64,000 nucleotides of DNA, from contig OX597818.1 in the NCBI GenBank assembly GCA_951406725.2, positions 80,290,001 to 80,354,000 on the forward strand. The letters run 5' to 3'. Position numbers and translations under genes: made by a program. The notes under the pieces were generated by a model that ran no database searches, had not been told where the DNA came from, and saw nothing but the letters and a program-made list of their open reading frames with translations. This document shows positions 2,310 to 60,695 of this stretch, one piece after another. Numbering within the stretch: the stretch's first letter is position 1; each line of letters opens with the position of its first letter. Source of the stretch: Octopus vulgaris. Taxonomy: Eukaryota.

Positions 2310-3259
2310 CCGTATTTGACGGCATATTAGACGCACTGGCATATTAGACGCACCCTCATTTCAGCAGGTCAAATTCAGGAAAAAAAGTTTTAAGTGTATT
2401 TAAGCATATATTGTTGAAAGCAGTCTAGCAGCACATTACAAAAGCAGAAAACATTGCTGTATAAAAGCAAGCATACAAAAGGAAAGCATACAAATTACAA
2501 TAGTAATCATCTTTAATCATCTTTTTAACCAGAAAACTCTTCATCATCTTCTACACCAGAAAAGTCTTCATAATCAGCAGGCATTTTTTGAGCAATGGAT
2601 GTTTTTGTACGCATTGATAAACCCTTCCGTTTCATAAACCTGTAACACCAACCTTCTGTTCATGCAAAGTTCTGTATCCCTCGTTGTTCTGATACTCTCA
2701 TGGCCTCATGAATTATCATTTTGGTAGATACACTTCTCCCTGAGTTTCTCTCATCAAGCACCCACGTTTTTATATCATCCTCAAGTTCTGGCCAATGTGG
2801 GGCTGGGCAACGAAGGTTATGTTTACCTTTCTGTGCTCTCATCAGCTGCTCTTCTTGCTGTCGCCAGACACGTATCATTTTTTCTGTAGGTGGTGGCCCC
2901 AAAACCCTTGCTGCTGCTCTATTTCCATGCTCCTTGGCATAATCTACCACTCGTAGTTTGTAGGAGATTTTGTAGCTTGATCTTTTTGCTTCCATAGCTG
3001 TGAGGGTGCTTGTACTGTTGTAGTGTGTTTTGTTATGATCATAAATTTTGTTGTACCAAGATATCCAACCTACCTCCGTATATACACGAACTCGCAACGA
3101 TCATGTGCATTCCGTAGTTTTACTCCTCACCGTCAGATGGCATCGAGTTAGGGTTCCGATCAGCTGATATTAGTAAACGTGTATCATGGATCGCAGCCTA
3201 ACAAATTACGGTAGATTGCTTTGATTTTTACGATAATTCGTATTTTAAAGTAATAATAC

Positions 3260-11518: not shown

Positions 11519-12933
11519 CGAGGGTCAGCTGAAAAGTTCATAGGCTGACCAAGATACTCTTATGAAATGTTACCAAATGAGGCTTATTTTTCAATATAGT
11601 CCCCCTTGAGCTCCCTGCACTACTTCCAATGGTGTTGCAGTGCTTGGATCCTATTGATGAAGAAATTTTCATCCTGAGGGTAAAAAGAAAGTTATCAACA
11701 TCAAATATGAAATCATCCTCACTGAGATACTGGTTCCCAGCCAAGTGTTTTTCCATGACGGGAAACAGATGATAATCAGACAATGTTCAATCAGCTTAAA
11801 GCCACAGTCACGCACAGTAGTCATTGAAACCAACGATTTGTGTACTGGAGCATTGTCTTGATGAAACATGATCCCTTTCGTCAGTTTTCCTAGGCATTTA
11901 GTCTTGACAGCCTTTCGTAACTGCCTCAACAAGTTGGCATCGTACTCTCCATTGATGGTGTGGCCTTTTTCAAGTTATTCAATAAACGCAATGTTTTTTG
12001 CATCCCAAAAAACTGAGGCCATCACCTTCTCTGAATATGAAACGACCCTAGCCTACTTTAGAACAGGTGAGGAAGGATGCCTCCACTGCATAGATTGTCT
12101 GTTTGTCTCTGGCTCAAACTGATGAAGCCAACACTCAGCCTGGGTTAGGAAACGTTCGAGGAAACCAGCTGGATCTGCCTGAAACAATGTCAGATTTTCC
12201 CATGATGTGATCAAGTGTCAGAAGACGTGGCACTGTTATATCGCAATACTACACAGTGGTTGTGTGAGCTACGAAATCCTCGTCGCCACTGTTATGTCGC
12301 ACATTCGGATGCCTTCTACTCAACTCTACTCTCATCGCTACTCTACTGTGCTCTGTGCTCTCACCGCTACTCTGCTTCTACTCTCCGACGCCTAGGCTTC
12401 TCCTACTATATCTACGTATTGGGCTAGCCTACTTCATCGTCTGGGGCGTCACACAACAGGCACCCACTGAGATAAACCTTCGTCATGTCAAGCTCATTGA
12501 GCAGAATATTCTCAACTCTCTCATAGGATATACTAACAGCATTGGATATTTTATCTATAGTCAATTGCCTCTCATTGATCACCATGGGATGAACACAATC
12601 AATGTTTTCCTCGGTGGTGACAGTTGCAGAACGTCCAAGACTCCCATTTTCTCTTAAATTCAAGTGCCTCCTTTTGCACTGTTGGTAAGCCTGGAGTGTC
12701 ATCCCTTAATGTAGCAACATTGTCAGTATAAACGTCGTTGGGGGCTGAACCCTTTTCCAACAGGTACTTGATAACATGACGATGCCAAATTCTGTCCATT
12801 TTCAAGAGTCGTTAATAGTTTCTTTTGAGGTGTTCTTTAAACTGTCAGATGTCAGTTTACCTGGCAAGAAACAATGCAGTTATTCATAAGAACTGTTGAA
12901 ATTAATGCATGCAAGATTTCATAGCTCTAGTAT
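11519..12933 (-). mobile_element. Decayed mariner (DD34D) element
   Basis: TA-CGAGGGTCAGCTGAAAAGTTC terminus; fragments MDRIWHRHVIKYL, QWVPRLLT, SVFWDAK, FHQDNAPVHKS, SDYHLFP, KGDYIEK*; other end lost at a SINE. Confidence 0.9.
12234..12458. mobile_element. Solo LTR (225 bp) inserted in the mariner WVPRLL motif
   Basis: TGTT...AACA termini, 5-bp TSD GGCAC (12229-12233; 12459-12463); removing it restores QWVPRLLT. Confidence 0.8.
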
Positions 12934-13870: not shown

Positions 13871-16183
13871 TCTCTTCTACTTTTTGATTATCATAAATTT
13901 TCCACTTAAGAGGGAGCCGGTTTCCAACAAAGATACAAGGTTCCATCTCTGGGATGTAGTTAACACAGACAAACTCACATTTGGAACTTAAGAAAAGTCT
14001 TGCATATTTTTACTGTTTCACTCAGCTTATACTTGAAATGTACGAATCAGCCGGTCTATTTCTCTTTCTGAAAACCCCAGCTTTTCCAGATTCTCCTTTA
14101 AGAATTTACTAACAAAACCTAGTGCTCCAATTATTATTGATACCAGGGGCGGACTGAGCCGTCGGTCAATCGGACACTGCCCAAAGGGACGGAGCTCTGA
14201 GAGGCTCGCACTCTACATGTAAACTCTACTAAAACACACATTCAACGGGGCCCGGTAAATAGTTATGTTCGAGGGCCCTTAATACTCTCAGTCCGTCCCT
14301 GATTGGTATGAATATGAATTCAGTCTGGATACAGAAGCTGAACGTTTCGAAGCAGTTCTGGATAGAGAAGCTGGAGCTTTTGAAGCAGGTGTTTTCGAAG
14401 TAGTTTTTCTTTGATTTTCAAAGAGATATTTATATCTGCAGGGCAGCTGACCTCTATGATGGTACATACCTTTGCTCCGCTGTCCCAAACAACAATATCC
14501 GGCCTGTTATGCTTACATCTGACAGAAGTTTTGATGGAAATATTCCACCAGTATTCCTTGAGTTGATGTTTATGAATGTATTCCATAACAGAGGGATTTT
14601 CAGTTTATTTCAGGGCAGTCTTTTTTGTAGATGGTATTGTAAACTGTTTTAGCAACAACATCGTGCCGCATAAGGAGGTAGTACCGTGACGACATTTTAG
14701 GACAGCTGCTAATCACATGCGTGATATCTTCCACAGAAACATGACATAGCCTACACATGCGTTTGCAGCTTGAGATTACAAGAGCGTCACTGTCTCTCTT
14801 GTTCACGAGGTACTTTGTGGCAATCTCCTGTACCTGGATTTTAAACGCATAGCCTTCAAAGTGTAATGTGATGTAGTGGTCTTGTGCCCAAGAGAGGCTG
14901 CGTTTCGTGTCAGTTCTACTGTCTTCTTCAAGCTTCCGGGCAACATACCCATGCATAGTCTTTTTTTGTATGCTGAGTGCTTTCCATCCAAGTCTTCTCT
15001 GAGGTGAGAGAGCCCTGCTGTTTTGGGGCTGTCCAGGAGATCATCAGGTAGAGAGTGTTTCTTGAGGATCTCACTGCCAACTAGTACAATGTTGCTCACT
15101 TCACTTTTCAGCACTACATTTATATATTTATTTTTGTTGCAGTCGTTTAGCAGGAGTTGCCTTAGTGACACCATACGGCATTCAAAGCCCGTCTGCACTG
15201 ATCTCAGGCCTATACCACCTTCATTTCTTTTTAGGTAGAGCCTGTCAACATCACTGTTGCTGTGGAAGTTCCCAGCTGTTGTCAGGATTTTGCAGGTTTT
15301 TATATCTATGGAGTGGATTTCCTATACAGACCAATCAGGTATCCCAAATGTTGGGATCAACACTGGTACTGTAAATGCATTGTGGGATATTGTTTTGTTG
15401 TAAGGGGAGAGTTCCGACTGCCATATTTTCCTAAGTCTGGTGTAATATTCTCGGGTCTCTCTATCTTTATTCACAGTGCCTTCATATGATACATTTTCGT
15501 CTATGCCCAGGTACTTATAACATTCTTTGTGTGGAATGGGGTAGATAGAGATACCGTTGATGCACAGGTTTGGGGTTTGGGAACTGAGGTTCTGCGATCT
15601 TTAACCAAATATGAACATTTCTTTTGGCCAAATTCCATACCTATATCAGCTGAAAATGTTGCTATCAATTCCAGTTGCTTTTTGGCATTGTTAACACTTT
15701 TAGAATACACCTTGAGGTCGTCTACAAAGAAATTATGAGTTACATTGATATTTCTAGCAGTTGAAGATCCTAGCATGTAACCATTTATTTTCTGCAGTAA
15801 GAACGATAATGGATTCAGTGCCAAAATGAAAAGAAGAACAGTAAGACTATCTCCCTGGAATATTCCCTTTGAAATGCCTATATTATCAGAAACAATTATT
15901 CTCTTCTCAGTTGTAAGGGTAAGAACTGTTGTCCATGTCTTTGTGAGTTTCTCTATAACAGCAATTAAAGTAGTAGGTACTTTTGCCAGATGAAGGCACT
16001 TCAACAGCTATGAATGAAGGATAAATTCGAACGCCTTTCTACAGTCAAGCCATACTGTCACAAGGTTTCTACGTAGTTTTCTTACTTCAGATAGTACAAC
16101 TTTGTTTATCAAATGTTGTTCGGCACATCCCCATATTCCCTTCTTTCCACCAGCCTGTTCATCAGTCATAATGTTGTTCGACT
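13871..16183 (-). mobile_element. 5'-truncated R4/Dong-like non-LTR retrotransposon (RT, CCHC, restriction-like endonuclease), pseudogenised
   Basis: EQAGGKKGIWGCAEQ; GIFQGDSL; HNFFVDDLK; CRLC..EDITHVISSC..RHD; RPDIVVWD..IIEVSCP; ends in (CATA)n. Confidence 0.88.
14144..14301. mobile_element. hAT-type MITE (158 bp) inside the LINE
   Basis: TIR CAGGGGCGGACTGAG / CTCAGTCCGTCCCTG; 8-bp TSD ATTGATAC/ATTGGTAT. Confidence 0.85.
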
Positions 16184-17488: not shown

Positions 17489-18053
17489 TTGGGTTGTCCG
17501 GAAAGTTTGTGCCGATTTATAGTAGCTTATCTTTCGACTTATTTTAGAACATGGTTGAGTCCACAAAATAGGATTTGACTACACCTCCATTTAGAGCACA
17601 GTTTAAGCTATCTTTTCGTGGAAGAAAGTTTATGTTCCTATAACCTGTGTTAATTCTGTAACCCTTTAAATTGGTAGATTAGAAAGTTCATTTTCGGCAC
17701 TTGATGCTTTGGGAACCAGACAAAAATTGCTGCAGCTCAGCTGGGATGTGTTACCCCACCCTCCATATTCACCAGATATTGCTCCTTCGGATTTCCACTT
17801 ATTCAGGTCTCTGCAGAATAGTCTTAATAGTAAAAATTTCAATTCCGTGGATGACGTAAAAAGATACTTTGATGAATTATTTGCCATGAAACCACCTTAA
17901 TTCTGGGAAGAGAGTATTTTCAAGTTAAAGGAAAGATGGGGATGCATTGTGCAACAAAATGGTTCATATTTGGTTGATTAAAAATGTAATGGCAAGTATT
18001 TATTGACCTTTTCTTTCCTTTAAAATTCGGCACGAACTTTCCGGTCAACCCAA
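17489..18053 (+). mobile_element. mariner internal-deletion derivative
   Basis: TIRs TTGGGTTGTCCGGAAAGTT / AACTTTCCGGTCAACCCAA, TA TSD; WDVLPHPPYSPDIAPSDFHLF. Confidence 0.92.
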
Positions 18054-18070
18054 TATATATATATATATAT

Positions 18071-20301
18071 AACCTAAACCTGTCGACACCACAAATAAAA
18101 ATCCTTTCAAGAGGACTAAAATTCACCCCAACTCCACAATACCCTAACCTGAGGGAAATACAGGATGACATCTCACACTTTTGCAGAAAATTACGCCTCA
18201 CAGAGGAATTTTTTGACAGGAAAACTAATAATAACGACGAATCAATGGTCTGTAACAAAAGCAACTATAATCCCATAAAAGGCAAAAACAAAACCTTAGA
18301 CAAATTTTGCGATTACATCTCCAACTTCCCTTATGGTGAACTCCCACAACCTAAACTCAAGCCCAACACCAGTAAAAGAGAATGGGAAATCATCCATACG
18401 CTACGAGACAATCATGACGTCACAATAAAGGAAGCTGATAAGGGTAGTACGGTCGTTGTTATGAATACTGAGCAATATAAAAACTCTGTATCTCTCCTTT
18501 TAGAGGATACCACATACTACGAAAGAGTAGTCGACTACCAGCAATCCAAAACAATGACCAAACTGAAGGCACTCATTTACCAACACCGGAATGACTTGAC
18601 AGCAAAGGAATGCGACTACATTACTAAATTTAATTGCAAAACCAGCACACTCTATGGGCTTCCAAAAATACACAAGAGTCAAATTATCACAGAAGCTTGC
18701 AAAAAGTCCACTTCAACCTGCATCACTATACCACATCCCACTGATCTCAAACTGAGACCAATAGTGGCAGGCCCAAGTTGTGAAACACACAGACTTAGCA
18801 ACTTTATAGATATCATCTTAAAGCCAAAACTGAAACACATTCCAAGTATTGTAAGAGATGACCTGGACCTATTAAATCATCTCCCCAAACATGCCGATAA
18901 AGACACCTTAATCGTTTCTTTTGATGTTATTAATCTTTACACCACAATCCCACATGAATATGGACTGGAAGCCATTAAATTCTGGCTGGATAAATATCCC
19001 AATGAGATCCCGGAAAGAATTAAAAAAGAATTCATAATTGAGGGCCTCAAATTTATTCTGCAAAACAACTTCATGTATTTCCACAACAACACTTACAGAC
19101 AGGTCTCAGGAACTGCAATGGGTACGAAAGTTGCACCTACCTATGCAAACCTGGTGATGGCCTACCTGGAATCACATATCTATGAAAAATCCAAATATAA
19201 GTACGGCCAGTCTTTCCACAAATACCTGTTGGAGAACTGGAAACGCTACTTAGATGATTGCCTCATCCTATGGTCCCACACACTCGACCAACTTATAGAC
19301 TTCAAAAACCTTATCAACAGTGTAAATAACAACATTCAATTCACAATGGAATATAGTCAGGACCAACTCCCTTTTCTTGACATCCTAATCATTAAAAAAG
19401 GCGTCAACATTGAAACTGACATCCATTACAAACCCACTGACTCTAAACAATACCTTCTATTCACCTCCAATCACCCAAAACACACAAAGACAAATATCCC
19501 CTTCAACCTAGCGAGAAGAATCTGCACTATTGTCTCAAATGACACAACACGAAATAGAAGACTCCGGGAACTAAGGGCAATTCTTCTCGAAAGACATTAC
19601 CCGGCATCACTAGTAGACAACGGAATAGAACGGGCCAAATCAATCAACATTCAAGACCTACGAAAACCCAAACACATCCACAGTACAGTAAATAGCCTCC
19701 CCTATCTCTCAACACACAACCCAAGGAATGCAGAAGCTTACACTATTATATACAACAACATTCCACAACTAAATCAAGACCCACGCCTGAAAAAAATACT
19801 GGCAGCTCATAAAATAATAAAAAGTAAGAGACAACCTAAATCCCTAAAAAACCTCTCACCAACGCAAAATTACACAACACAAACCCACCGCCCACCATCA
19901 AAAAATGTGGTCGCCCCAACTGAAAGACCTGCATCCACCTCATTGAGGGATCGTCGTACAAGTTCCACTCGGGACACACATTCATCATAAAAAATAATTT
20001 CACGTGCGCATCAAAAAATTTACTCTACGTCATAAGGTGTGAAGGATGCCACGAAGACTACATAGGGCAAACGAGCCTTACCCTCAGAGAAAGAATGACA
20101 GTTCACCGACAACAACTGAGGGACCCCTCCACAAGACAGATACCACTAAGTGGACACTTAGACCTTTGTGCACACAATAAGTCCCCCAAATTCTTAGTCT
20201 TCCCACTATACCAATGCTCGGACAACACCACAGACCAAACACGAATAAATAAGGAAAGTAATCTTATTCAAAAATACAGACCACAACTAAACATACTCTA
20301 A
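18071..20301 (+). pseudogene. PLE reverse transcriptase + zinc-finger linker + GIY-YIG endonuclease; one frameshift (~19850) and an in-frame TGA (19921)
   Basis: Frame is open from 18071: LSRGLKFTPT, ADKGSTVVV, YGLPKIHK, LRPIV, SFDVINLYT, GTAMGTKVAP, RYLDD, LPFLD, HYKPTD; after the shift CGRPN*KTC..FTCASKNLLYVIRCEGCHEDYIGQT..R..H..E..LN. Confidence 0.92.
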
Positions 20302-41319: not shown

Positions 41320-42926
41320 CAGTGGGGGGAAATATATATTCGTACACGTCAAAATTATTTATTTAATTTCTAATGAACATAAATGGGATATACCAATACT
41401 ATATTTGCATACACATGCATAAACTAAGAATATGCGAAAGAAACTAATAAATTATTGTAACTAAGGAATTTATATACAATCATAAATATTTAGAGGTAAA
41501 AAAAGTATTCGTACAGAATAAATTTATGATTTTCTAAGCCACAAAATACTGTTAAAATAATTTTTTTTTTTACTAGAACTTTCTCGTTTGTTCCAATAAT
41601 CTTATCAGTTGTCATTTTTAAGTGTCAAAATGCTAGCTTCTTCATTCAGCACTGAGACAACATAAAGTAGTATCATAATAATGGCGAAAAGTAAAGAACT
41701 CAGAAATACAGTGAAAAACTTAATTATTGAACAGCGGAAAGCAGGTAAAAGTTACAGGAAAATATCAGAGACCCTTTGTATTCTATTTTCTACCATATCT
41801 TCATTTATTCAAAGATATAAAAATTCGGGAACTGTTGAAAACAGAATAAGATCCAGTGCACCATGCAAGATTTCCCCGAGATCTTTAAGAAAAATGAAGT
41901 GAAGAATCGAAAAAAAAATGCAATGATCACCAGAAAGGAGTTGCAAGAAGATTTGTTAGCTTCAATGACTAGTGTTACACTATGAACAATCAGCAATGAA
42001 CTTCATAGGAATGAACTGAGGTCACGCTCTCCTAGAAAAACTCCGCTGTTGACTAAAAGGCATAGAGATGCCCGTTTAAAATTTGTTTATGAACATAAAG
42101 ATAAACCTGATACATTCTGGGAAAATGTTTTATGGACAGACGAGTCGAAAATTGAATTGTTTGGAAGAAATTCGCGTAGCTATGTTTGGAGGAAAGATGG
42201 TACTACCTATTCGCCGAAAAACACAATTCCTATCATAAAGTTTGGAGGTGGTAACATCATGGAGTGGGGGTGTTTCTCTGCAAATGGTACTGGCAATTTA
42301 CATGTGATAGATGGTAGAATGAATGCAGAGATGTACCAAAATATTTTGAACAATGATTTATGGGACTCTGTAGAAAAGCTCCAGCTTTGTGAAGGGTGGG
42401 TTTTACAACAGGTTAACGACCCTAAGCACACGGCGAAGTCTACCAAAAAATGGATTGTCGATCACAATATAAAATTATTAGAATGGCCAAGCCAGTCACC
42501 TGACTTGAGCCCCATTGAAAATTTGGGGCGTTATTTGGAAATTAAAATTCATTCAAGAGCTCCAACGTGCATTCCAGATTTGAAGAAAATTTGTCAAGAA
42601 GAATGGGAAAAAATTCCTAAAGAAACATGCGAGTCGTTGATTAAAAACTACAAGAAGTGATTGGTTGAAGTGGAACTGAATAATGGTTATGCTACGATGT
42701 ATTAAATCAGAATTATCAGTTGTTTATGTTCTGTACGAATACTTTTTCACCCATAAATATTTATAATTGTATATAAATTCCTTAGTAACTATAATTTATT
42801 AGCTTCTTTTGCATATTCTTAGTTTATGCATGTGTTAGCAAATATAGTATTGGTATATCTTATTTATGTTCATTAGAAATTAGAAAAATAAAGAATTTTG
42901 ACATGTACGAATATTTATTTCCCCCA

Positions 42927-44839: not shown

Positions 44840-45213
44840 AATATATATATAAAAGTCTCCAAGTGCTAGGTGTCTGGCATGGTTTGTCCGATGTTACAGA
44901 TATCGGACGGGTATGTTTGATTCTTAGTATTTTCAAATCTAAATCAGAAGAAATCTCTGAGCTGATGAAGGAAAAGTGGCGTTTTACCCACAAATCCAGA
45001 AACAGACTGTCCTCGGGTATCTTATATGGATGTGATCTTTCATTGTTTTTCCCTTATACCTATGTGAGTTATTTTCTGAGTATGCATTGTCTGGAGACTT
45101 TTATTTGCAGTTGAAGAAATAGCCAAATTTTTGGCTGCTATTTCTGAAAAGTTCGGTATGTGGTAAAGTGAATTTTTTTACTTTACCATATTTTTATAAA
45201 TTAATACTTTAAA

Positions 45214-45316
<103 letters not shown>

Positions 45317-45535
45317 ATGTATGTATGTGTGTGTGTGTGCGTGTATGTGTATATATATATATATAATCATATCAAAGGGAAATGGAAATTAATTAAAATT
45401 TACATTTCCAGTGGTCTAACGTGTAAAAAAATTTATATACATATATATGTATATAAATTGTGAAAATGTTATGGACAAGGTGTCTAATTTCGGCATATTT
45501 GGCATTAGAAATTTTTTCATTTGCCCTTATTTATG

Positions 45536-45588
<53 letters not shown>

Positions 45589-45593
<5 letters not shown>

Positions 45594-46368
45594 GAGGGAG
45601 ATAAGTTAATATTAATTTTAATATCAATTTAAAACCAGTAGTCTAGCATACAAAAATTCTGAGAAGTCAGAGAAAATTCTAATATATGTGTATATTGGCA
45701 GGGCAAGACTGCTAGGTAGTCGGCCGTATGCTAGAAATAGATCATCAACGATCAAACTACAAAGAAAGTTCTCTAGAGCAAAAATTCAGCGAACACCATA
45801 ACCAAATTTGGCGGGCAGGACAGATGAAAATTTATATAAAAAAAACAGAATCAATTGCATACCTCGGTTTCGGCCTTTAACAAAAGAATTACTTACATAA
45901 TTCAAATGTCCGTGGCTTCATCAGTACAATCGTTCAGTGTAAATGCAATCTACAAAACTAACCCCGGCTTTCTGTGCCAAGACAGACACATGCTTAGTTT
46001 TACCGATTACATTAGGGATAAAATTTCAAATGTCTTGGTTTCGGCGCGCTAAGAAATTCCTGAAGCGAAGAACTGCAGTAAATAATTCACTGCGGTTAGC
46101 GCTTGCTACTAGAGAACGTATTTATTTCAATATTTAAATAATGAGGGAGATAAATTAATATTAATTTTAATATCAATTTAAAACCAGTAGTCTAGCATAC
46201 AAAAAATCTGAGAAGTCAGAGAAAATTCTAATATATGTGTATATTGGCAGGGCAAGACTGCTAGGTAGTCGGCCGTATGCTAGAAATTTGTAGTTTGATC
46301 GTTGATGATCTATTTCTAGCATACGGCCGACTACCTAGCAGTCTTGCCCTGCCAATATACACATATAT
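45589..46368 (-). mobile_element. Non-coding retrozyme-like element: 549-bp monomer + 150-bp direct repeat + ~80-bp inverted copy, in (TA)n
   Basis: 45589-45738 repeats at 46138-46287 (2 mismatches); 46287-46368 is the reverse complement of ~45682-45763; contains an HHR. Confidence 0.85.
45854..45930 (-). ncRNA. Type-I hammerhead ribozyme, intact core, extended stem II
   Basis: ATTGTA-CTGATGA-AGCC..GAATTA(TGTAAG)TAATTC..GGCC-GAAA-CCGAGG-TA^TGCAAT. Confidence 0.8.
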
Positions 46369-46384
46369 ATATATATACATATAC

Positions 46385-46546
46385 AGCCACTACACACATT
46401 TTTTTCTCTCCTTATTTTTTCTGTGTACCTTTCTGTAGAAGACCGTAGGCTCAAAACGTAAAAGACTTTTTTTATTCCTGAGCGTTATACTAATACATCT
46501 GTTTGTTTGTACACCACCTGTCTTCGTCTTTTGTTTTTTTCGTAAA

Positions 46547-46548
<2 letters not shown>
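46385..46548 (+). mobile_element. Short PLE-type element with decayed hammerhead (46429-46464)
   Basis: CTTT-CTGTAGA-A-GACC(GTAG)GCTC-AAAA-CG-TA-AAAG followed by CCTGAGCG as in the 40590/56660 family. Confidence 0.6.
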
Positions 46549-46596
<48 letters not shown>

Positions 46597-46597
<1 letters not shown>

Positions 46598-47250
46598 TAG
46601 ATGTACCCGCCGCGACCCGTTGGTCACAACTTCTCCAAGCTAAAAATGTCGAACGTGCGGTAGCAAAGGAAAAATATACTAATTCGAACTTCATGCAATA
46701 AAATTCTTAAATAATACAGTTTTCCTGCCTTTAGTGTAACAACATAAACATGACCAAGTGTTTCTTCTTTGAAAACGTTCAAATGGGCTTTAACTTCTTT
46801 CCTCGCTCTCTTCTTTGCCATTCTTTATTACCATAGTTCCAATTGAAATACATGAGTACTTCAGCATAAAGTAATGTTTTTGCAAAGTCGTCATTGATAC
46901 ACAATGAAAAGAATTCTGTCTGTGTTGTTCTCATATGTCGTTCATTGACAGCCATTTTTATATCCTCATTGTTTCTGAGCAATATTTTTTGTTCATCTGG
47001 TAGACGAACTTGTAGTATCTGTACTGCAGGTGCTCTTTCATGAATCGAAAATCCTAAAATGGACGCAACTGCTGCGAATGATTCAATATCTCTACTCATT
47101 AGATTTTGACTAATATCACTGTTTATTTGAACGGCAGCTTGGTCATTGACTTTCAGCGTGTACTTAATGACGTACTTCACTGACCTCCACCACCGAGGCA
47201 ACGATTTCAACATTGCAGTGGCATTTGAATGCTCTTAAATGAGTTTCATT
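46597..47250 (-). mobile_element. Helitron deletion derivative with a RepHel fragment
   Basis: LRAFKCHCNVEI; SVKYVIKYTLK; FSIHERAPAV; LYAEV..YF.W; LYYLRILLHEVR; 3' hairpin + CTAG. Confidence 0.85.
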
Positions 47251-50257: not shown

Positions 50258-51549
50258 CGAGGGGCGTTCAATAAGTAATGCCTCTGACCCACTTGCCTTT
50301 GTTTGATCTAGCTGAAATTTTGCATGTGCAATTATTAATATCTCTATAGATTAAGTGGCAAATTACAGCTCCGAACTAATTGTGGTTTCTGATTTATAGG
50401 TGTTTGAAATGAGTCAAGTGGGAAATGGAGCATGTTGAGTGTCGAGCAGTGATCTGGTTTTTGTATTTGAAATGACGCACACCACAGGAGACTTTTAATG
50501 AAATGAAAGTAACTTATGGTGATGATGCCCCATCATATGACCTTGTAAAACGCTGGCATCGTAAATTCAAACATGGTCGGAACTCTGTGGAAACAGCTCC
50601 CAGATCTGGTCGCACCCCTTCTGCCATTGATGAGGCATCTGTCCGTCAAGTTGAGGCTGCCATTTTGGAAGATCGACGCATAACTATTCGCCAAATAGCC
50701 CATGAGGTCAAGATTAGTACCGGGTCTGTGGAAACTATCATTCATGACCATTTGCATATGCAAAAGGTGCCTGCCAGATGGATTTCCAGGCTGCTCACAC
50801 CTTTCCAGAAGCAAGAACGCAAGAATTCCAGAAGCAAGAATTTAGGGATGTGCCAAGAAGATGAGTCAAAATTTTTCAAAAGACTGATTACACAGGATGA
50901 GACCTGGGTCCATCACTATGATCCAGAGACCAAAGCCCAGTCAATGCAGTGGAAGCACCATGACTCACCTCCTCCAAAGAAGGCAAGGGTGCAGCCCTCC
51001 GCTGGCAAGGTCATGCTCACAATCTTCTGGGACCAGGACGGAGTAGTGATGACAGATTTCCTGGCAAAGGGTACCACAATTACAGGAGCCTATCATGTTT
51101 CACTTTTGAGGAAATTAAGAGAAGCTATCGAAACCAAGAGGCGGGGCAAGATCAGCAAAGGCATCCTCCTCCTGCAGGACAACGCTCCGGTCCACAACTC
51201 GCGTGTTGCCAGATCAGAAGCACAGGCGTGCGGCTATGAACTCTTCCCCCATCCCCCTACTCTCCTGACCTTGCACCCTCTGATTTTCACTTCTTCCCAG
51301 CCATGGAGTTGATTTTGAAAGGAAAGCGTTTCCCAGATGATGCAGCCTTGATTTCTGAAGTCACGTCGTGGTTGGAGGACCAAGCTGGGGTCTTCTACGA
51401 AAACGGTCTCCAGAACTGCATCAAACGATGGGAGAAATGCGTACCTCTGGGTTGTTCCTATGTAGAAAAAGACTAATAACTGTGCCAAGTTTCGTTGCTC
51501 TACTGCTATGGGAAGTGGGTCAGGGGCATTACTTATTGAACGCCCCTCG
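50258..51549 (+). mobile_element. Full-length mariner element
   Basis: TIRs CGAGGGGCGTTCAATAAGTAATGCC.CTGACCC; TA TSD. Confidence 0.95.
50425..51476 (+). pseudogene. mariner DD34D transposase pseudogene
   Basis: ARWISRLLT; ITQDETWVHHYDPE; IFWDQDG; LLQDNAPVH; frameshift at HPP/YSPDLAPSD; early TGA. Confidence 0.93.
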
Positions 51550-56489: not shown

Positions 56490-56862
56490 GATATATGTAT
56501 AGAACACACTCACACACATATATATCTATGTATATGTATATTGTGAGGGTCTTTTGGTCGATAACTGACGAGGAATTAGTAACGTCTTGTTTTCTGTGTG
56601 TATTTTTCGTTTGTTCTTTTATTGTGTTTTCGTTTAAATTCTGTTACATATAATTATACGTAATCCAAACATGAAAACACAAAGAGAAATACAACAACGC
56701 GAGGACGTGGAACAAGTATAGTATTATTGGACGCTCAGGAAAGAAGGAAAGAAGGAGGGTTTAACGTTTCGAGCGGGGCTCTTCGTCAGAAACATAGGAA
56801 AAGGGAAGATTCAAAGAAGGGAAGACGGAGGAAAACAAATCGCCAACGGCACACACGCGGTC

Positions 56863-57299: not shown

Positions 57300-58103
57300 T
57301 GTGTATTGGTTTTTTTCTCTTGAATAGCCGTGTTGAGTCATTCCATGTGTTGAACATAGAGTTCCGCGTTAACCGTTTGGTTCCGTTCAGGAAATTCGTA
57401 ATGGATAATTCCTTTCCAGTCCCACCATACGCACAACATCGGTGTCGCTTGTTTACCGGGGCTAAGCCATTCCTTACGCTGCTTCATATTAATGTACAGG
57501 CACCACTTTTCGTCGCCAGTAACGATTCGGTAAAGAAATCGTTGCTTGTGTCCATGAGCTGAGCGGTGACGAGCAAGCAAAGCAGAGGAGATTGTGGCTC
57601 GTTGATTTTTGTCGTTGTCACTTAAAGCATGCGGAAGCCATGGTCCATACTTCTGAACCTTTCCCATCGAGTGAAGATGCTTTCCTATAGAAGTGTGGGA
57701 GCATTCCATTTTCTCTGCCAGTTCCCTTGTCGTTTGACGAGAATTTTCGTGCAAAAGTTGGTTTAATCGCTCTTCATCGAACTCAACTAGACGGTCAGAA
57801 CAAGGTGTGTCTTTGAGGTCAACATTTCCGTTTTTGAATTTGGCATACTAATCACGAGCAGTTCTTTCAGCTATGGGACCCTCTCCCATACATAGCACAA
57901 ATGTCGCGAGCAGCTTTTGCGGCCTTAGAACCTCGATTAAAAGCAAAAAGAGGGAGGTGTCGAAAATGCTCGTTTTTCTTAACTTGACATTCCATTTTAA
58001 TGATCTGAAAATAAACAAAAATTAACTAAAATTAACTAGAAAAAAAAAGATTCAAAAAATTTAAAAACGCAATAAATTCCAAAATTTAAAAAAACGGCGG
58101 AAA

Positions 58104-60077: not shown

Positions 60078-60695
60078 ATAATCAAAATAAGCAACAAGGA
60101 TATCCAGAGGTAATGTAGTACGATCGTTTCATGCGACTCCATTTAATTGAACAATCCAAACATTACATCAATTTAAAGTGTAGAGCAATCTTCAGCCGCA
60201 CAAAGGACATAGAATCTAATTAAATTTGAAGGACACATTAGTATAATTTTATCCAAAATCTCCAAGAGGATAAGGAGATAGACGAAGAACATGCTTTACC
60301 AACAACATCACAGTTGTAACTGAAATTTTTCTTAAAAAAAAAAACTTTTGAAAAAAATTTCGGTTACAACTGTGATGTTGTTGGTAAAACATATTCTTTG
60401 TCTATCTCCTTATCCTCTTGGAGATTTTGGATAAAAGTATACTAATGTGTCCTTCAAATTTAATTAAATTCTATGTTTTTTGTGCGGCTGAAGATTGCTT
60501 TACTTTTTAAATTGATGTAATGTTTGCATTGTTCAGTTAAATGGAGTCACATGAAACGATCGTACTGCATTACCTCTGGATATCCTTGTTGCTTATTTTG
60601 ATTATAATCACCTTATTTTAAATTGTATGGATAATACCATACTAAATTCTGGTGTCTCAACTTAAATACCATATTCATCTGAATCTAAATTTTTA
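60078..60695 (+). mobile_element. PLE-type terminal remnant with a ~250-bp inverted duplication
   Basis: 60078-60330 is the reverse complement of ~60353-60605 with scattered mismatches; tail to ~60695. Confidence 0.85.
60482..60570 (+). ncRNA. Type-I hammerhead motif with long stem-II insert (mirror copy ~60115-60200, minus strand)
   Basis: GTGCGG-CTGAAGA-[~58 nt]-GAAA-CGATCG-TA^CTGCAT. Confidence 0.7.

Follow-up and report, generated by a model that had tools for sequence, protein, structure and literature searches.

The 64-kb window, by which we mean the whole stretch of likely octopod DNA analysed here, contains an insertion (45528-46375) that reads, from left to right, as a (TA)n run, a 549-bp unit, a repeat of the first 150 bp of that unit, an 82-bp inverted copy and a short (AT) run. 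Self-comparison bore out this arrangement, which a first-pass annotation of the sequence had described: the direct repeat carries two mismatches, the inverted arm, put there at about 80 bp, is 82 nt long at 100% identity, and the right-hand run is short, (AT)6A. The features of the insertion are the following.

45528-45591, no strand: (TA)n run detected by TRF; the element's 3' end, and the likely first target nick and priming site
45589-46137, minus strand: full unit of 549 nt, non-coding, 35.5% GC, from self-comparison
45589-45738, minus strand: first repeat copy, equal to the 3' 150 nt of unit 1, from self-comparison
46138-46287, minus strand: 5'-truncated second unit (pseudo-LTR), 148 of 150 positions identical, from self-comparison
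46287-46368, plus strand: 82-nt inverted copy, spanning unit positions 94-175, 100% identical, from self-comparison
46363-46375, no strand: short (AT)6A run, the likely second priming site, with 6 nt common to the element's internal AUAUACACAUAUAU hairpin

The two copies of the direct repeat (45589-45738 and 46138-46287) lie at an offset of 549 and match everywhere except at 45605 and 45657. Unit position 150 is the last one present in the second unit, which would need another 121 nt to reach a second cleavage site, the cut being at 271; this unit overlaps by 1 nt with the inverted copy, which is the exact reverse complement of 45682-45763. The first six letters of the (AT)6A run on the right also belong to the element itself. 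Self-comparison of the unit with the rest of the window found no other match except TA runs.

The claim that no credible ORF lies within the element held as well. Judged by frame length alone and read round the junction, the longest Met-started frames of the unit are 24 aa on the hammerhead (minus) strand and 64 aa on the opposite (plus) strand. The RT plus GIY-YIG ORF of an autonomous Penelope-like element (PLE) is absent from the unit, and a PLE-type tail of 30-40 bp is absent at this locus. No tRNA was detected in 45000-47000, and two simple patterns found no polymerase III A or B box. To the right of the insert, between two TA runs, lies a repeat-like stretch (46383-46546) that is single-copy in the window and holds, near 46436-46465, a decayed string resembling a minimal hammerhead; this stretch is possibly an older pLTR whose flank took the element.

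The unit carries a single type I hammerhead

The minus strand of the unit contains a hammerhead motif with the following parts.

45852-45932, minus strand: type I hammerhead, made up of an 8-bp helix I, CUGAUGA, an extended helix II with a GUAA-capped hairpin, GAAA and a short helix III
45859-45862, minus strand: GUA triplet; cleavage is predicted between 45860 and 45859, at a distance of 271 nt from the 3' end of the element
45861-45868, minus strand: helix III ACCGAGGU (ACC-GA-GGU), self-complementary and predicted to form, as a dimer, a duplex that contains two G.A pairs (-6.6 kcal/mol)

Helix I joins 45932-45925 to 45859-45852 through 8 bp, two of them G-U, and the core strings CUGAUGA and GAAA lie at 45924-45918 and 45871-45868. 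Helix II is prolonged by GACA/UGUU plus a 7-bp hairpin with a GUAA loop. The first-pass annotation had described this motif as an intact hammerhead (45854-45930, GUA site). The core and the GUA triplet are present as described, yet helix II has an irregular first pair, and helix III has no fold alone, as a single motif, in the energy computation. That first pair is either A.C or an extra A followed by a G-C pair and a bulged C. The energy model favours the A.C base (-17.3, versus -13.9 for the extra-A form); an extra base plus bulge, like the extra-A reading, is among the features reported for PLE motifs in PMC4209133.

A hand-written type I descriptor matched the unit once, compared with none of 20,000 base shuffles when both strands were considered, and gave two matches on the minus strand of the whole window. 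Within the unit it found the hammerhead on one strand only. Rfam gave no match over the window at gathering score and did not score the hammerhead; the 21 weak matches it gave close to the locus fall on hairpins or TA runs, and no ribozyme is among them. A second GCCGAAAC at 46045-46038 was considered as a second hammerhead and rejected, as no core precedes it and 46041/46042 are variable.

With one hammerhead, a dimer-type helix III and an irregular base of helix II, this copy is predicted to be unable to release a monomer. Because the hammerhead at the locus is single, a monomer would not be excisable from it, and the copy would be an offspring copy and a dead end for monomer release. Loci called active in the preprint of Li, Clavereau and Pollet (2026; bioRxiv 10.64898/2026.07.22.740005) have two consecutive units with complete hammerheads, an arrangement that is lacking here.

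The unit belongs to a divergent many-copy family

Sequence words of the unit are present in 20 of 24 listed sequencing runs (three organism labels, eight studies). Four runs (X1, X2, X3 and X7) were compared with a permuted unit, 45739-46287, which places the head-to-tail junction in its interior. X1 may be the window's own sample and X2 and X3 carry other organism labels; X7 is only guessed to be RNA, and its 129 matching contigs were left out of any inference about expression. The DNA-type runs yielded 1,308, 715 and 610 matching contigs. Many contigs are at 90-95% identity, and all 29 bins of the unit are covered in each of the four runs, summed depth not being equivalent to copy number. 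With 610-1,308 contigs per DNA-type run, the unit is thus not single-copy, and it represents a divergent many-copy family. Few of the contigs run on into unlike sequence (share 0-0.03), and two contigs of X2 contain opposite-strand joints.

Loose ends consisting of (TA)n form two groups. One, at 46130 (4 contigs, X2), stops 8 nt past the junction; the other, at 46231 (7 contigs, X3), lies at the place equivalent to where the inverted arm of this copy meets the target. The loose ends at 46231, with a median length of 9, could instead be an internal TA expansion.

This copy is not typical of the family. Six of its positions (45779, 45799, 45852, 45966, 45990 and 46041) have letters that account for <2% of the depth in X1-X3, so that the copy has either aged or comes from a minor subfamily. 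At 45706 all three copies at the locus share one allele that accounts for about 12% of depth in X1-X3; the common allele fits a single template and is no proof of one.

One X3 contig, with a depth of 283, skips 45878-45973, a 96-nt segment that comprises most of the hammerhead, and possibly represents a ribozyme-less subfamily. An intron was rejected as the source of the skip, which has no GT-AG ends. RNA editing was also considered and rejected, A>G and T>C changes being as common in the DNA-type runs as in X7.

Beyond these runs, viral pattern scans returned 0 and 28 stretches and a metagenome pattern scan 64; none of these 28 and 64 loci matches over more than about 30 letters, and all were taken as chance. 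The pattern scan of prokaryote genomes returned 0, and phages gave no match.

Pair-keeping changes in a predicted rod-like fold

The whole unit is predicted to fold better than shuffled sequences, with z -4.6 for the linear form and, against 40 shuffles, z -4.2 for the circular form, and shows two prominent features.

45643-45734, minus strand: predicted four-way junction near the 3' end, closed by CUAGCAUAC/GUAUGCUAG and repeated at 46192-46283
45768-46117, minus strand: predicted long-range helices (46117-46109/45776-45768; 46052-46018/45786-45835; 46013-45994/45942-45961) with the hammerhead at the tip of the rod

Half of the four extra helices claimed for the unit survive in this fold: GCAGT/ACTGC and CTAGCATAC/GTATGCTAG form with a pair probability of about 1.0, but GCGCTAA/TTAGCGC (0.02) and CCAAGACA/TGTCTTGG (about 0) are outcompeted by the long-range helices.

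Among family members, double changes that keep a pair were found at 45855/45929 and 45850/45933 in helix I and its extension, at 45874/45915 in helix II and at 45956/45999 in a long-range helix. These four position pairs compare with 0.46 expected (P 0.00065) among the 40 variant rows listed (33 further), a P value that is based on unphased rows and treats the copies as unrelated, ignoring subfamily kinship. The one hint of phase is at 45956/45999, the only positions that share the depth value of one X7 contig. Variants at 46041/45799 turn an A.A mismatch of this copy into G-C. Leaving out six rows seen only in X7 reduces the count, on the same assumptions, to two pairs (P 0.052), or to three when the mismatch pair is included (P 0.005). 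Seven listed variants break a predicted pair without a listed change in the partner, and the sole core variant among the rows listed falls at the free position N7 (45920). Under the predicted fold, the compensatory changes point to selection on RNA structure.

The insertion resembles the products of PLE retrotransposition

The published PLE signature consists of a partial tandem, an adjacent inverted 5'-truncated copy and a (TA)n target (PMC8557442, as far as described there), and a (TA)n bias is given for the Neptune, Hydra and Naiad clades (PMC8557442; PMC8969392). All three parts of the signature are found at the locus, where the insert reads on the hammerhead strand as inverted truncated piece, truncated unit (the pLTR), full unit and target. 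Because the layout is that of the published signature, it suggests that this copy was pasted in by a Penelope-type retrotransposon. We favour, as the likely explanation, a many-copy non-coding hammerhead repeat that travels in an octopod as the non-autonomous passenger (a non-LTR retrozyme) of a PLE. The first-pass annotation had arrived at a non-LTR retrozyme copied by a PLE RT; the non-coding hammerhead unit, its many copies and the PLE-type layout agree with that proposal, although the locus itself has one hammerhead.

Such an insertion could arise as follows. Source loci with at least two units would be transcribed on the minus strand, and two hammerheads would pair via the self-complementary helix III and cut at GUA, yielding 549-nt monomers that are perhaps circularised. 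A PLE endonuclease would nick (TA)n, the free end would prime at the AU-ending 3' site of the unit, and RT would copy 699 nt, either in going once around a circle or in following an uncut multimer. The other target strand would prime at the internal AU hairpin (unit position 94) and copy 82 nt, and this copy would be joined to the first cDNA with a 1-nt overlap, producing the inverted arm. The arm in fact begins at unit position 94, where the AU hairpin and the target have six letters in common, and runs to 175, so that 57 nt of it lie within the range of the first cDNA. The proposed second-strand priming resembles twin priming in L1.

Since 271 nt separate the cut from the 3' end, a linear cleaved monomer would need internal priming and a jump to give this copy; a circle or an uncut multimer is the simpler template, and between these two we see about even odds. 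A circular RNA template has been proposed for PLEs (PMC4209133). The 1.27 tandem copies had been ascribed to reverse transcription around a 549-nt circle or to a template jump, and the tandem layout fits, but a linear multimeric transcript explains it equally well. The joint from 46287 to 45739, found in all four runs, was rejected as evidence for a circle: it is a product of the permuted cut and attests internal continuity only.

A bolder version, which we put forward tentatively and consider rather doubtful, is that the unit is an abundant octopod circular RNA of 549 nt, the largest invertebrate retrozyme circle to date, whose rod fold is kept by compensatory change and which a Neptune-type PLE copies from two fixed AU-rich sites pairing with (TA)n. 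If this were true, thousands of short copies would record the formation of pseudo-LTR and inverted arm directly.

Alternatively, the unit might be no more than a long 3' terminus, the pLTR region, of an autonomous PLE, two 5'-truncated cDNAs having been joined by a template jump, so that the figure of 549 is accidental. PLE copies are usually 5'-truncated and their hammerheads lie near the 3' end, according to PMC8557442 and PMC4209133, and the 3' 150 nt show elevated summed depth. We nevertheless regard this explanation as unlikely, in the first place on account of X2 record 14 (46054-46171, nine other letters), a divergent contig under another organism label that bridges the same head-to-tail junction with 84 and 34 letters on its sides. 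It is the one contig to bridge the junction by a 31-letter rule among the 32 listed (2,775 further), and three more cross it with 7-11 letters. Because a contig from a divergent copy bridges the same junction, the 549 period is probably a family trait and not a local accident. In the second place, copies continuing past 46137 into a PLE ORF, which the annotation had named as one of three observations that would speak against its reading, did not appear: no listed contig enters foreign sequence there, and none of the 24 loose ends listed (of 271) falls at 46137. Summed depth in the bin just left of the junction (46119-46137) reaches the level seen over the hammerhead, the minus strand has no coding remnant, and the predicted long-range helices join the 5' part of the unit with sequence beyond the hammerhead, as would suit a closed unit. 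Among the contigs listed, none spans the whole unit, and neither an array with two hammerheads nor a dimer was seen.

We consider it quite improbable that the family, born as a terminal piece of a PLE, now spreads at the DNA level, whether by unequal exchange of the satellite type or through rolling-circle DNA, and that its hammerhead is a decaying relic. Local tandem amplification of PLE ends has been proposed (bioRxiv 10.64898/2026.07.22.740005), and the X3 contig without 45878-45973 has lost most of its hammerhead; however, a solitary 1.27-mer that has an inverted arm and sits in (TA)n is the footprint of an insertion, and the compensatory changes argue, within the predicted fold, for selection at the RNA level. 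Finally, a viroid-like circular RNA that replicates from RNA to RNA in octopus cells and is occasionally reverse transcribed into the genome would suit the rod-like predicted fold (z -4.2), the dimer-type hammerhead and the high sequence variety, but it is highly improbable, since the hammerhead occurs on one strand only and the very large summed depth of the DNA-type runs is in keeping with a genomic repeat. The label "viroid-like", taken in this sense, is not borne out.

Other hammerhead-like and mobile sequences nearby

A broken, frameshifted PLE with RT and GIY-YIG domains by Pfam lies on the plus strand at 17990-20301 and ends in simple repeats. Its protein has its best named relative in Octopus bimaculoides (83%, over 62% of the query), which makes an octopod host likely, and a CxxC remnant before the nuclease suggests that the element is of Neptune type. 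Self-comparison found no sequence in common between this PLE and the 549-bp unit. The presence of a PLE in the same window counts in favour of a PLE-driven origin, the lack of common sequence against it.

At 60078-60605 we observed a 528-bp fold-back with 92% arms and two hammerhead-like motifs on opposite strands; their cores lie at 60195 on the minus and at 60488 on the plus strand, and they have the helix III AC-GAUC-GU and a GUA site. In sequence the fold-back has nothing in common with the 549-bp unit, and its appearance is that of another PLE-type family in which an inverted copy is present. Strings of the form CUGANGA...GAAA that have one additional base ahead of helix II occur at 56789, 34281 and 28561 on the minus strand and at 12119 on the plus strand; all four are like minimal PLE hammerheads, with helix I support ranging from 2 to 6 pairs. 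Broken frames at 41986-42660, 50476-51312, 57338-57847, 2660-3100 and 14600-16007 resemble what we take to be Tc1/mariner or pogo transposases and LINE RT.

Comparison with known systems

The unit shares with non-LTR retrozymes a type I hammerhead, the lack of protein coding, a GC content <50% (35.5%) and a self-paired predicted monomer. It is not a plant LTR retrozyme, defined by a type III hammerhead in each LTR, as its hammerhead is of type I and lies outside the 150-bp repeats. The metazoan non-LTR retrozymes presented by Cervera and de la Pena (2020; PMC7229834) are similar in having a non-coding low-GC unit, one type I hammerhead and a head-to-tail junction, as well as a strongly self-paired fold (predicted in our case) and mollusc hosts, and PLEs are named there as likely drivers. 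By contrast, the unit sizes given in that paper are 170-400 nt compared with 549 nt here, and the long branched helix II with its irregular first pair brings the present hammerhead nearer to PLE variants than to the canonical ones described there. The main text of that paper makes no mention of an inverted arm or a (TA)n microsatellite target, both of which are present at this locus.

The length of 549 falls within the 51-972 bp given by Li et al. (bioRxiv 10.64898/2026.07.22.740005), who describe solo monomers as common and propose a PLE origin. Their set of 35 species, as described, includes no mollusc, whereas the present locus is likely octopod, and their evidence consists of co-occurrence and pLTR homology, whereas ours is an insertion footprint. 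In the same preprint, 8 of 9 predicted dimers are reported to have failed to cleave in vitro.

Among PLEs, the closest parallels in layout are the endonuclease-positive elements of Neptune/Hydra type, with a partial tandem, an inverted truncated copy and (TA)n bias (Craig et al. 2021, PMC8557442, as described there); unlike these, the unit has no RT or endonuclease ORF. Its hammerhead resembles the PLE hammerheads of Cervera and de la Pena (2014; PMC4209133) in its 3' position, its short self-complementary helix III and the possible extra base after A9; the dimer-type helix III is described there for metazoan hammerheads too. Naiads are described as sharing the (TA)n target; they lack hammerheads of canonical form and, in cephalopods, are said to survive as remnants. 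The non-autonomous Chlamys elements of algae are described as making the same kind of pLTRs.

In the literature searched, we found no description of this family from a cephalopod, although Repbase, Dfam, the consensus set of the O. vulgaris repeat paper and the supplements of the preprint by Li et al. may contain its sequence. The giant squid paper, in the part seen, counts 235 Rfam hammerheads without detail, and the word "ribozyme" is absent from the text of the O. vulgaris repeat paper and from its one supplement.

Craig et al. (PMC8557442) present as unsolved how tandem and inverted PLE ends originate and where the microsatellite bias comes from. A template that is short, abundant and non-coding and whose end points recur would be a handy substrate for mapping priming sites and for tests of the circle model. 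The family would extend hammerhead retrozymes to cephalopods and would tie retrozymes to PLE enzymes via an insertion footprint instead of co-occurrence. What is new here is one more non-LTR retrozyme, of a kind already described in other animals; this member leaves knowledge of the kind as such unchanged, and contributes a large unit, a clear footprint of a PLE and a hint that a second priming site recurs.
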